Below, in pieces: positions 1 through 3,221 of a DNA stretch of 3,221 bases. The notes under the pieces are model-generated. The model was given only the letters and a program-made list of their open reading frames with translations, searched no databases and had not been told where the DNA came from. The DNA is taken from assembly GCF_003334255.1 (NCBI RefSeq), contig NZ_QOWU01000126.1. The stretch is one strand, 5' to 3'. Each line of letters opens with the position of its first letter. The stretch's first letter is position 1. The translations under genes and the position numbers were made by a program. This DNA comes from Escherichia coli (lineage in GTDB: Bacteria; Pseudomonadota; Gammaproteobacteria; Enterobacterales; Enterobacteriaceae).

Positions 1-77
1 AGTTATCGTGAGAGTAATTCATCGGCACGTTAAATCATATCAGGCGTAATACCACAACCCTTAAGTTAGCGCTTATG
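1..77. mobile_element. Terminal 77 bp of an IS186-like insertion sequence (IS4 family), element truncated by the window start; terminus at position 77
   Basis: Reverse complement of 1..77 reads CATAAGCGCTAACTTAAGGGTTGTGGTATTACGCC..., which matches my recollection of the IS186 terminal inverted repeat and adjacent sequence. The flank immediately outside (78..90, GGATCACTCCCCG) is GC-rich, the kind of target IS186 prefers. Identification is from memory, not a search. Confidence 0.7.
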
Positions 78-99
78 GGATCACTCCCCGCCGTTGCTC

Positions 100-252
100 T
101 TACTCGGATTCGTAAGCCGTGAAAACAGCAACCTCCGTCTGGCCAGTTCGGATGTGAACCTCACAGAGGTCTTTTCTCGTTACCAGCGCCGCCACTACGG
201 CGGTGATACAGATGACGATCAGGGCGACAATCATCGCCTTATGCTGCTTCAT
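100..252 (-). CDS. hokC: HokC (Gef) type I toxin, 50 aa small membrane peptide of the Hok/Gef family
   Basis: The last 50 codons of the 100..342 minus-strand ORF translate to MKQHKAMIVALIVICITAVVAALVTRKDLCEVHIRTGQTEVAVFTAYESE, which I recognise as HokC/Gef: one hydrophobic transmembrane segment and a short polar tail. ATG is at 252..250 and stop TAA at 102..100 on the - strand. An AGGAGA Shine-Dalgarno lies 8-13 nt upstream (revcomp of about 258..268). Confidence 0.9.
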   Translation of the reverse strand: MKQHKAMIVALIVICITAVVAALVTRKDLCEVHIRTGQTEVAVFTAYESE

Positions 253-309
253 TGCTCTCTTCTCCTTGACCTTACGGTCAGTAAGAGGCACTCTACATGT
301 GTTCAGCAT
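100..309 (-). CDS. mokC: MokC, 69 aa overlapping reading frame (modulator of killing) whose translation is coupled to hokC
   Basis: In-frame ATG at 309..307 extends the hokC frame N-terminally (MLNTCRVPLTDRKVKEKRA + HokC), with GAGG about 9 nt upstream. The ORF track's 80 aa version starts at a further upstream GTG (342), which I do not favour. The nested mok/hok arrangement is the established architecture of hok/sok loci. Confidence 0.8.
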   Translation of the reverse strand: MLNTCRVPLTDRKVKEKRAMKQHKAMIVALIVICITAVVAALVTRKDLCEVHIRTGQTEVAVFTAYESE

Positions 310-355
310 ATAGGAGGCCTCGGGTTGATGGTAAAATATCACTCGGGGCTTTTCT
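301..355 (+). ncRNA. sokC: SokC antisense RNA (antitoxin of the hok/sok type I system); ends approximate
   Basis: Lies antisense to the mokC translation initiation region (mokC ATG at 307..309, SD at about 319..322). A hairpin with stem 317..324 paired to 342..349 (8 bp including two G-U pairs in RNA) is followed by TTTTCT at 350..355, an intrinsic-terminator-like 3' end. The 5' end near 301 is from recall of the locus, not derived from the sequence. A TTGACC -35-like hexamer is at 266..271 but I could not find a convincing -10. Confidence 0.55.
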
Positions 356-408
356 CTATCTGCCGTTCAGCTAATGCCTGAGACAGACAGCCTCAAGCAC
401 CCGCCGCT

Positions 409-414
409 ATTATA
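409..414 (-). promoter_or_regulatory. Candidate -10 hexamer (TATAAT on - strand) for the mokC/hokC mRNA
   Basis: Revcomp of 409..414 is a perfect TATAAT, about 95 nt upstream of the mokC ATG and about 150 nt upstream of the hokC ATG, consistent with the long structured leader typical of hok mRNAs. No good -35 match at 16-18 bp spacing. Positional inference only. Confidence 0.3.
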
Positions 415-534
415 TCGCTCTCTTTAACCCATTTTGTTTTATCGATTCTAATCCTGAAGACGCCTCGCATTTTTGTGGCGTAATTTTTTAATGATTTAAT
501 TATTTAACTTTAATTTATCTCTTCATCGCAATTA

Positions 535-563
535 TTGACGACAAGCTGGATTATTTTTGAAAT
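535..563 (+). promoter_or_regulatory. Candidate sigma70-type promoter (TTGACG -35 at 535..540, 17 bp spacer, TGAAAT -10 at 558..563) in the AT-rich nhaA upstream region
   Basis: Hexamer match and spacing read directly from the sequence. nhaA is known to have two promoters (P1 NhaR/Na+-dependent, P2 stationary-phase), but I cannot assign which this is, if either. Confidence 0.25.
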
Positions 564-760
564 ATTGGCCTAACAAGCATCGCCGACTGACAACAAATTA
601 ATTATTACTTTTCCTAATTAATCCCTCAGGAATCCTCACCTTAAGCTATGATTATCTAGGCTTAGGGTCACTCGTGAGCGCTTACAGCCGTCAAAAACGC
701 ATCTCACCGCTGATGGCGCAAATTCTTCAATAGCTCGTAAAAAACGAATTATTCCTACAC

Positions 761-766
761 TATAAT
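761..766 (+). promoter_or_regulatory. Candidate -10 hexamer (perfect TATAAT) about 72 bp upstream of the nhaA start
   Basis: TATAAT at 761..766; the sequence 17 bp upstream (TAAAAA at 738..743) is a poor -35. Could be one of the two known nhaA promoters; not resolved from sequence. Confidence 0.3.
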
Positions 767-771
767 CTGAT

Positions 772-799
772 TTTAACGATGATTCGTGCGGGGTAAAAT
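772..799 (+). promoter_or_regulatory. Second candidate nhaA-proximal promoter (TTTAAC -35-like at 772..777, 16 bp spacer, TAAAAT -10 at 794..799)
   Basis: Hexamers read from the sequence; the predicted start would be about 30 nt upstream of the GTG. Weak -35. Listed as an alternative to the 761..766 element. Confidence 0.25.
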
Positions 800-823
800 A
801 GTAAAAACGATCTATTCACCTGA

Positions 824-829
824 AAGAGA
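824..829 (+). promoter_or_regulatory. Ribosome-binding site of nhaA (AAGAGA)
   Basis: Purine-rich AAGAGA sits 8 nt upstream of the GTG at 838. Confidence 0.5.
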
Positions 830-837
830 AATAAAAA

Positions 838-2004
838 GTGAAACATCTGCATCGATTCTTTAGCAGTGATGCCTCGGGAGGCATTATTCTTATCATTGCC
901 GCTATCCTGGCGATGATTATGGCCAACAGCGGCGCAACCAGTGGATGGTATCACGACTTTCTGGAGACGCCGGTTCAGCTCCGGGTTGGTTCACTCGAAA
1001 TCAACAAAAACATGCTGTTATGGATAAATGACGCGCTGATGGCGGTATTTTTCCTGTTAGTCGGTCTGGAAGTTAAACGTGAACTGATGCAAGGATCGCT
1101 AGCCAGCTTACGCCAGGCCGCATTTCCAGTTATCGCCGCTATTGGTGGGATGATTGTGCCGGCATTACTCTATCTGGCTTTTAACTATGCCGATCCGATT
1201 ACCCGCGAAGGGTGGGCGATCCCGGCGGCTACTGACATTGCTTTTGCACTTGGTGTACTGGCGCTGTTGGGAAGTCGTGTTCCGTTAGCGCTGAAGATCT
1301 TTTTGATGGCTCTGGCTATTATCGACGATCTTGGGGCCATCATTATCATCGCATTGTTCTACACTAATGACTTATCGATGGCCTCTCTTGGCGTCGCGGC
1401 TGTAGCAATTGCGGTACTCGCGGTATTGAATCTGTGTGGTGCACGCCGCACGGGCGTCTATATTCTTGTTGGCGTGGTGTTGTGGACTGCGGTGTTGAAA
1501 TCGGGGGTTCACGCAACTCTGGCGGGGGTAATTGTCGGCTTCTTTATTCCTTTGAAAGAGAAGCATGGGCGTTCTCCAGCGAAGCGACTGGAGCATGTGT
1601 TGCACCCGTGGGTGGCGTATCTGATTTTGCCGCTGTTTGCATTTGCTAATGCTGGCGTTTCACTGCAAGGCGTCACGCTGGATGGCTTGACCTCCATTCT
1701 GCCATTGGGGATCATCGCTGGCTTGCTGATTGGCAAACCGCTGGGGATTAGTCTGTTCTGCTGGTTGGCGCTGCGTTTGAAACTGGCGCATCTGCCTGAG
1801 GGAACGACTTATCAGCAAATTATGGTGGTGGGGATCCTGTGCGGTATCGGTTTTACTATGTCTATCTTTATTGCCAGCCTGGCCTTTGGTAGCGTAGATC
1901 CAGAACTGATTAACTGGGCGAAACTCGGTATCCTGGTCGGTTCTATCTCTTCGGCGGTAATTGGATACAGCTGGTTACGCGTTCGTTTGCGTCCATCAGT
2001 TTGA
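838..2004 (+). CDS. nhaA: Na+/H+ antiporter NhaA (388 aa, 12-TM secondary transporter), GTG start
   Basis: ORF 838..2004 translates to [41 protein letters not shown]..., which I recognise as E. coli NhaA essentially residue for residue. The protein is highly hydrophobic, and the conserved Asp163-Asp164 pair (IIDDLG, codons GAC GAT at 1324..1329) of the ion-binding site is intact. Stop TGA at 2002..2004. Confidence 0.97.
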
Positions 2005-2018
2005 CAGGACGGTTTACC

Positions 2019-2046
2019 GGGGAGCCATAAACGGCTCCCTTTTCAT
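2019..2046 (+). terminator. Intrinsic-terminator-like hairpin between nhaA and nhaR (probably partial, allowing read-through)
   Basis: GGGAGCC at 2020..2026 pairs perfectly with GGCTCCC at 2033..2039 (7 bp GC-rich stem, 6 nt loop ATAAAC), followed by TTTTCATTGTT from 2040. It starts 15 nt after the nhaA stop and ends before the nhaR SD. The short, interrupted T-tract suggests incomplete termination. Confidence 0.45.
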
Positions 2047-2052
2047 TGTTAT

Positions 2053-2060
2053 CAGGGAGA
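2053..2060 (+). promoter_or_regulatory. Ribosome-binding site of nhaR (AGGGAGA)
   Basis: Strong SD-like AGGGAGAGA ends 3-5 nt before the ATG at 2064. This supports ATG 2064 as the start rather than the TTG at 2046 used by the ORF track. Confidence 0.55.
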
Positions 2061-2063
2061 GAA

Positions 2064-2969
2064 ATGAGCATGTCTCATATCAATTACAACCACTTGTATT
2101 ACTTCTGGCATGTCTATAAAGAAGGTTCCGTGGTTGGCGCAGCGGAGGCGCTTTATTTAACTCCACAAACCATTACCGGACAGATTCGAGCGCTGGAAGA
2201 GCGCCTGCAAGGCAAATTATTTAAACGCAAGGGACGTGGTCTCGAACCCAGCGAGCTGGGAGAACTGGTCTATCGCTATGCCGATAAAATGTTCACCTTA
2301 AGCCAGGAAATGCTGGATATTGTGAACTATCGCAAAGAATCCAATTTATTGTTTGACGTTGGCGTGGCTGATGCACTTTCCAAACGCCTGGTCAGTAGCG
2401 TACTTAACGCCGCAGTGGTAGAAGGCGAGCCCATTCATCTTCGCTGCTTCGAATCCACCCACGAAATGCTGCTGGAGCAATTAAGTCAGCATAAACTGGA
2501 TATGATCATTTCTGACTGTCCGATAGACTCTACGCAGCAGGAAGGCCTGTTCTCCGTGAGAATTGGCGAATGTGGCGTGAGTTTCTGGTGTACAAATCCA
2601 CCACCAGAAAAACCGTTCCCGGCTTGTCTGGAAGAACGGCGACTTTTGATTCCTGGGCGACGTTCAATGTTAGGGCGCAAATTGCTTAACTGGTTTAACT
2701 CCCAGGGATTAAACGTAGAAATCCTCGGCGAGTTTGATGATGCCGCTTTGATGAAAGCTTTTGGTGCGATGCACAATGCAATCTTCGTTGCCCCAACGCT
2801 TTATGCATATGACTTTTATGCCGATAAAACTGTCGTAGAAATTGGTCGCGTCGAGAATGTGATGGAAGAGTACCATGCTATTTTTGCTGAGCGGATGATT
2901 CAGCACCCGGCGGTACAGCGAATCTGCAATACGGATTATTCTGCGCTTTTTAGTCCAGCGGTGCGTTAA
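2064..2969 (+). CDS. nhaR: LysR-type transcriptional activator NhaR (301 aa), Na+-responsive regulator of nhaA
   Basis: From ATG 2064 the frame translates to [53 protein letters not shown]..., which I recognise as E. coli NhaR. It has an N-terminal helix-turn-helix typical of LysR-type regulators and a C-terminal co-inducer domain. Stop TAA at 2967..2969. The ORF track's TTG start at 2046 adds 6 residues and overlaps the upstream hairpin, so I reject it. Confidence 0.96.
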
Positions 2970-2976
2970 TCGGCAG

Positions 2977-3001
2977 CTCCCCCAAAGTTAAGGTGGGGGA
3001 G
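2977..3001. other. GC-rich hairpin immediately downstream of the nhaR stop (no U-tract)
   Basis: CTCCCCCA at 2977..2984 pairs with TGGGGGAG at 2994..3001 (8 bp stem, 9 nt loop). No T-run follows on either strand, so it is not a canonical intrinsic terminator; it could be an RNA stability element or a rho-dependent termination region. Confidence 0.3.
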
Positions 3002-3144
3002 ATAGATTAGTTGTACATTACCACGATTTTGACTCGGCTCATTATTTGCCCGCTTGAGACATTGTTTCCATATGTACGCGGGCGAATAAATAGAGGAATC
3101 TGATTACTTCCTTCATGGGGATGCTGAAAAGAGTAGTAATTGCT

Positions 3145-3221
3145 GGTAATGACTCCAACTTATTGATAGTGTTTTATGTTCAGATAATGCCCGATGACTT
3201 TGTCATGCAGCTCCACCGATT
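3145..3221. mobile_element. IS1 terminus (terminal inverted repeat GGTAATGACTCCAACTTATTGAT and adjacent sequence), element truncated by the window end
   Basis: 3145..3167 matches my recollection of the IS1 terminal inverted repeat. The following sequence encodes the InsB C-terminus on the - strand (see next feature). The putative 9 bp target flank just outside the element is 3136..3144 (GTAATTGCT). Confidence 0.85.
3160..3221 (-). CDS. insB: IS1 transposase InsB, C-terminal fragment (partial, continues beyond the window)
   Basis: Minus-strand translation of 3219..3163 gives ...SVELHDKVIGHYLNIKHYQ followed by stop TAA (revcomp of 3160..3162), which matches the InsB C-terminus as I recall it. 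The ORF track did not list it because it is truncated at the window edge. Confidence 0.85.
   Translation of the reverse strand, partial: SVELHDKVIGHYLNIKHYQ

Follow-up and report, generated by a model that had tools for sequence, protein, structure and literature searches.

Positions 1..420 of the window (the whole stretch of DNA analyzed, i.e. 3,221 bases of the Escherichia coli dnaJ-to-rpsT interval) very probably constitute a chromosomal hokC(gef)/mokC/sokC type I toxin-antitoxin locus, in which an IS186 copy splits the 3' UTR of the toxin mRNA and the regulated delayed-killing circuit is disabled. The 3' elements of this mRNA, fbi and the terminator, are not deleted; they now lie across IS186 towards dnaJ, 1,349 bp away and beyond the window. 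A sequence-only reading of the same DNA had described the locus as probably a decayed, non-killing copy. The detachment of fbi and terminator, as judged from predicted folds, supports this description and at the same time refines it: "non-killing" is best taken to mean that the regulated stable-mRNA circuit is gone, while the toxin ORF is intact. Anatomy, target site, displacement of the 3' elements, predicted pairings, and population frequencies provide the observed part of this picture, to which a proposal on mRNA fate and loss of killing is added; the latter is modeled on thermodynamic folds and on the analogy to the hok/sok system of plasmid R1. For K-12, the IS186-split hokC is already on record in the literature, to which the orientation variant and the population figures presented here are incremental.

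Organization of the window

The window encompasses an IS186 end, hokC/mokC/sokC, nhaA, nhaR, a fimbrial-gene remnant, and an IS1 end. The following features were assigned:

1..77, minus strand: IS186 end (transposase-proximal); the remainder of the 1,339-bp element lies beyond the window
1..22, minus strand: first 7 codons (MNYSHDN) of the IS186 transposase gene insL, ATG at 22..20, co-directional with hokC
55..77: 23-bp terminal inverted repeat of IS186, CAACCCTTAAGTTAGCGCTTATG, exact match
78..87: one copy of the 10-bp target-site duplication GGATCACTCC; the second copy lies at the far IS end, beyond the window
78..99, minus strand: residual hokC 3' UTR of 22 nt, in mRNA sense GAGCAACGGCGGGGAGUGAUCC, consisting of 9 nt past the stop codon, then the 5' arm and the loop of the first 3' hairpin
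100..252, minus strand: hokC (gef) toxin ORF of 50 aa from the ORF list, stop codon at 100..102, identical to MG1655 b4412
100..309, minus strand: mokC, an open overlapping frame of 69 codons that couples hokC translation, with the coordinates of MG1655 b0018
250..402, minus strand: hokC mRNA leader, its 5' end GGGUGCUUGAGG (tac element) beginning at 402, with an upstream complementary box at ~345..351
301..359, plus strand: sokC (sof) antisense RNA, spanning the mokC ribosome-binding site and start codon, identical to the MG1655 annotation (b4413)
409..414, minus strand: perfect TATAAT, read directly, a putative -10 box ending 6 nt upstream of the inferred hokC mRNA 5' end
838..2004: nhaA
3007..3144, minus strand: 138-nt remnant of a fimbrial-family gene truncated by IS1
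3145..3221: IS1 terminal repeat (GGTAATGACTCC...), the final segment of the window

The assignment of the first segment to IS186, for which the sequence-only reading had proposed a database comparison, was confirmed: 1..77 is 100% identical to the end of the complete 1,339-bp IS186 of strain 720632 (locus L001 of the set compared here). In this strain, the annotated transposase CDS (1410..2522, minus strand) extends to the equivalent of window position 22, in agreement with direct reading of the sequence. Both marks of IS186, the exact 23-bp terminal repeat and the start of the InsL transposase, are therewith present in the window. IS186 is classed as an IS4-family element; the RefSeq annotation names the IS421 family. 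The repeat is found in exact form at both IS186 ends in L001, L004, L006-L008, L010, and L011-L012, and at the one end that is present in L005. The target-site duplication was defined by comparing the junctions of strain 720632 (L001) and MG1655 (L004) with the empty sites of strains E3 (L003) and JP538 (L017); in this target with its G-run and C-run, the same 10 bp flank both IS186 ends in L001, L004, and L006-L010. The gap between the IS186 end at 77 and the hokC stop codon is exactly 22 bp (78..99), as had been read from the letters; all coordinates of that first reading proved correct.

The toxin matches PF01848 (Pfam HOK_GEF) with E = 5.5e-24 over the full model (1-42) and scores 46.8 bits with the NCBIfam Hok models, which is below their curated cut-off of 73; the HOK_GEF domain is likewise present in the longer mokC frame. 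mokC and hokC use one and the same stop codon, the arrangement of the mok frame in hok/sok loci, and sokC overlaps the mokC start at 307..309, as does the antisense RNA of such loci. The predicted sokC fold (z = -4.3) begins with 12 unpaired nt at the 5' end, followed by a long stem-loop and a tail rich in U. Toxin ORF, mok frame, and antisense RNA had been called intact, a view that the open frames, the Pfam match, and the identity to MG1655 bear out. Annotation pipelines call hokC simply a type I toxin, and the detached regulatory 3' end goes unflagged.

The Rfam sok family RF01794 matches 250..402 in full length with 118 bits (gathering score 59). This match runs in the sense of hokC up to the hokC AUG, while sokC of MG1655 is annotated on the other strand at 301..359; the model thus appears to capture the leader of hok and not the antisense RNA. 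A consensus promoter scan recovered neither the hokC nor the sokC promoter and found no good -35 box on the hokC strand.

At the other end of the window, IS1 is found 89 bp deeper in the fimbrial-family gene in close relatives (2 SNPs in 3 kb), which suggests a separate insertion or an IS1-mediated adjacent deletion. Among seven IS-free near-identical strains examined, JP538 is the only one with the exact haplotype of the window, IS1 being located 89 bp further in in the other 6 of the 7. The combination of IS1 and an empty site was for this reason rejected as proof of independent IS186 insertions.

Sequence elements separated by the insertion

The allele without IS186, represented by strain E3, reads ...GTGGC GGGGATCACTCCCC GCCGTTGCTCTTACTCGGATTCGTAA. 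The target of IS186 is a G+C-rich GGGG-N6-CCCC hairpin (GGGG-ATCACT-CCCC on the plus strand) that starts 10 nt past the hokC stop codon. The intact hokC mRNA, inferred to extend over 401 nt from the equivalent of window position 402 to a terminator common to hokC and dnaJ, carries the stop codon at nt 301, the target hairpin at nt 311-330, and the duplicated target at nt 316-325. Numbered from the first base of the stop codon, the 3' region of IS-free hokC amounts to 101 nt. A 3' region of about 100 nt with fbi and terminator, which the sequence-only reading held to be needed by functional hok mRNAs, indeed exists in the IS-free alleles; it has not been replaced by the IS or lost, but displaced by the said 1,349 bp.

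The predicted fold of the intact allele has a minimum free energy (MFE) of -169.7 kcal/mol (z = -5.96). In this fold, tac (nt 1-12) pairs with fbi (nt 352-364, CUUCAACGCACCC), a 13-nt element located ~52-64 nt past the hokC stop codon, with predicted probabilities of 0.945-1.0, and an intrinsic terminator stem-loop with a U run follows at ~nt 374-399. When IS186 and one copy of the duplication are removed in silico, hokE and the hok gene adjacent to cysH are predicted to form the same pairing between their mRNA ends. One compensatory change was found in this pairing, U7-A in hokC vs C7-G in hokE.

The fbi sequence was not found anywhere in the window, even with 2 mismatches allowed, and the terminator is likewise absent from it. 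A search of 78..99 for either element, suggested by the sequence-only reading, yielded just the 9 nt past the stop codon and the proximal arm and loop of the hairpin. The alignment to an IS-free allele suggested there as well identified the 3' elements, and the duplication expected at the far end of the IS was located in strain 720632, with GGATCACTCC at both ends. The tac-fbi pairing and the terminator are hence the hok/sok hallmarks that the window allele lacks, every other sequence-level test for a hok/sok locus having been passed.

Orientation and recurrence of IS186 at hok loci

The window does not represent the MG1655 allele. This assignment was rejected, since the inverted IS186 leaves positions 1..54 without a match to MG1655 at this locus. 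MG1655 encodes insL1 on the plus strand, convergent with hokC, whereas in the window the transposase gene is located downstream of hokC and co-directional with it. The IS186 copy of strain 720632 is the exact reverse complement of IS186A of MG1655 and shows the same junctions; genomes with the opposite orientation match the window starting at position 55.

A count over 5,426 complete E. coli genomes gave 3,815 with an empty site, 925 with IS186 in the window orientation, and 677 with IS186 in the K-12 orientation; these three states together account for 5,417 of the 5,426 genomes, with ~30% occupied. The orientations were counted with queries for the dnaJ-side junction; 140-nt queries and hokC-side 300-nt queries also matched IS186-bearing hok paralogues and plasmid hok loci. 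The K-12 reference thus displays the minority of the two orientations, and the one in the window is commoner in sequenced E. coli. Therefore, data on the K-12 gef transcript are not automatically valid for the commoner allele.

The target hairpin is the only occurrence of GGGG-N(3-7)-CCCC in the 5.3-kb empty locus. For IS186, SaiSree et al. reportedly arrived in 2001 at a target consensus of (G)≥4 N3-6 (C)≥4, i.e. at least four G and at least four C separated by 3-6 nt. IS186 is also found 21-22 nt past the stop codon at three further hok loci, namely hokE, a hok gene adjacent to cysH/cas3, and a plasmid hok gene. At each of the further loci inspected (L011, 2177..2199; L012, 2177..2200; L005 and L013, both hokE), the element is located in a homologous GGGG...CC hairpin. 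In the plasmid hok locus, the far IS186 junction shows no matching duplication, which suggests that this locus was rearranged after the insertion. In E. coli TOP10 (L002, NZ_CP080620.1, 2450..2530), IS186 has been reduced to approximately its last 50 bp next to hokC, which now adjoin sequence from downstream of dgcT, the result of a deletion or rearrangement that has one of its endpoints within the element.

Repeated independent insertion into this preferred target is the simplest account of these findings, with inversion and selection as possible minor contributors. Of the two, selection to disarm toxin loci, acting beyond target preference, fares somewhat better as the reason for the frequency of IS186 behind hok genes, and is still considered unlikely. 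The occupancy of about three tenths of the complete genomes and the equivalent position of the element at four different hok loci would fit this explanation. A survey in which hok/sok homologues were noted near several mobile-element insertion hot spots also suggested that their disruption is adaptive (bioRxiv 10.1101/527788). Against it stands that the hairpin represents the exact IS186 target motif and the sole such site in the locus, so that target preference alone predicts the pattern, and that the insertions are never found inside the ORF. The hok 3' UTR hairpin, as an exact IS186 target, offers a mechanical explanation for the repeated inactivation of chromosomal hok loci by IS elements that does not require selection.

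Inversion is bound up with the question whether both orientations stem from one ancestral insertion that was flipped in place or excised and re-inserted. To our knowledge, no mechanism inverts an IS between 23-bp repeats. In favor of a single event, one IS copy equals the reverse complement of the other over 1,339 bp without a mismatch, the window and MG1655 share the identical 10-bp duplication and 3,144 bp of flank, and this duplication stays identical on diverged backgrounds as well. Each orientation is found on an identical K-12-like haplotype as well as on backgrounds that differ by 1.2-1.7%, in every case with one and the same 10-bp duplication. The IS186 copies at hokC differ by 0-1 base, one 1,336-bp copy that is annotated as frameshifted (L009) excepted; set against flanks diverged by 1.2-1.7%, the insertions look younger than the haplotypes that harbor them. 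Moreover, strain JP538 (NZ_AP025180.1, 3601..4333) possesses an empty, unscarred IS186 site in the same 3.1-kb haplotype, with 0 mismatches over window positions 88..3221 and the same IS1 junction. Therefore, one background exists in three states: empty, in the window orientation, and in the K-12 orientation. The lon promoter offers a precedent for either orientation at a single site (PMC3045373). A common ancestral insertion is accordingly rated as rather improbable, slightly more so than selection, and repeated insertion is preferred.

The exceptional copy belongs to strain ET245 (L009, 343..1797), in which the IS186 transposase and mokC are both annotated as frameshifted and the IS measures 1,336 bp vs 1,339 bp; these frameshifts could reflect real decay or homopolymer sequencing errors.

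Proposed fate of the interrupted hokC mRNA

In the hok/sok system of plasmid R1, fold-back keeps the full-length mRNA untranslatable, hidden from Sok, and long-lived, until slow trimming of the 3' end frees it. By analogy, a course of events is proposed for hokC that starts from the observed insertion: IS186 entered the G+C-rich hairpin behind the stop codon, duplicating the 10 bp GGATCACTCC, and fbi and terminator now lie 1.35 kb away on the far side of the element. Transcripts ending within the IS would then fold their 5' end locally onto nt 52-58, adopting an "open" form. For interrupted transcripts of 402, 500, 700, and 1,000 nt, the 5' end is indeed predicted to pair with nt 52-58 and to have no 3' partner. 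SokC would bind the open hokC mRNA immediately and bring about its destruction; where SokC is missing, the mRNA would be translated. A stable pool of inert toxin mRNA could thus not accumulate, and the delayed-killing circuit would therefore be lost in spite of intact toxin, mok, and sok sequences. As to the toxin, hokC (gef) is said to have been found lethal on over-expression by Poulsen et al. in 1989.

A surrogate fbi within IS186 was also considered. Within IS186, the most favorable 14-nt partner for the mRNA 5' end gives a duplex of -18.3 kcal/mol, equal to the native duplex; both energies correspond to the mean of a shuffled-sequence null, and the short-duplex search is not discriminating.

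For K-12, gef is described as hokC with IS186 downstream, an arrangement thought to disrupt fbi and normal mRNA processing (PMC3562002). The sequence-only reading had treated this as known biology, which the publication confirms. K-12 gef is still transcribed and regulated by the antisense RNA, its mRNA ending within the IS ~200 bp beyond the stop codon (PMC3562002). In MG1655, the right end of IS186A (L004, 2560..2600, minus strand) provides, on the hokC-sense strand, a hairpin followed by UUUUUGUUAUU that ends 183 nt past the hokC stop codon (counted from its first base). The end reported for the gef mRNA of K-12 is probably explained by this hairpin with its U run, which is present only in the K-12 orientation. 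As IS186 is inverted relative to MG1655, the K-12 transcript-end data are not directly transferable to the window allele.

On the hokC strand inside IS186 in the window orientation, a consensus scan revealed no convincing intrinsic terminator and one weak site of 5 pairs. Transcription from the hokC promoter may thus continue into insL, no terminator being predicted in between, which raises the prospect that insL is co-regulated with hokC or that read-through restores a functional hok mRNA; on the evidence at hand, this combined prospect is improbable. If the former applied, IS186 transposase expression would be placed under a toxin-antitoxin promoter and under SokC-directed RNase III cleavage. 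If the latter applied, a 1.75-kb read-through mRNA would regain the tac-fbi pairing and hok would be functional, with the IS embedded in its 3' UTR.

A hok/sok module that still works in this manner, through a hokC-insL transcript of 1.75 kb that crosses IS186, reaches the native fbi and terminator by dnaJ, and folds back, is the least probable of the alternatives and very unlikely: the weak terminator-like site and the predicted MFE structure of the 1,750-nt RNA, which restores the pairing of nt 1-12 with the native fbi, speak for it, but the 5' end is predicted to be open at every intermediate length tried over the extra 1.35 kb and would be exposed to SokC and ribosomes, and insL translation and Rho could interfere. 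Pedersen and Gerdes are said to have found in 1999 that hokA, hokC, and hokE of K-12 are inactivated by nearby IS elements, which also argues against a working module. The end of the gef mRNA inside the IS, reported for the K-12 orientation (PMC3562002), points in the same direction. Disruption of the regulated circuit by the split 3' UTR hence stays the preferred reading.

Comparison with known systems

The prototype for the locus is hok/sok (parB) of plasmid R1, with which it shares a toxin of the Hok family overlapped by a mok frame, a short antisense RNA covering the start of mok, and the tac element at the 5' end. The 3' fbi and the terminator of the plasmid system are matched by the IS-free hokC alleles. 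R1 hok possesses an intact 3' end and mediates post-segregational killing, whereas the copy in the window is chromosomal and cut off from fbi and terminator.

IS186B at hokE of K-12 shares the orientation seen in the window, the transposase gene being co-directional with the toxin gene. Here, the element is inserted 21 nt past the stop codon in the homologous hairpin (GGGGAGTAATCC directly adjoining the IS) and is flanked by a 10-bp duplication. hokE is a separate paralogue at another chromosomal position (ybdK-entD).

The lon promoter is comparable to hokC in that a single preferred, G/C-flanked target is struck repeatedly by IS186 in either orientation (PMC3045373). The consequences differ: at lon, the insertion inactivates a promoter, whereas at hokC it splits a 3' UTR.

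hokC/IS186A of MG1655 is the K-12 counterpart of the window allele. Positions 55..3221 of the window are 100% identical to it (0 mismatches over 78..3221); in both alleles, IS186 has entered at the same point, 22 bp from the stop codon, and has duplicated the same 10 bp, while the orientation of the element sets them apart.
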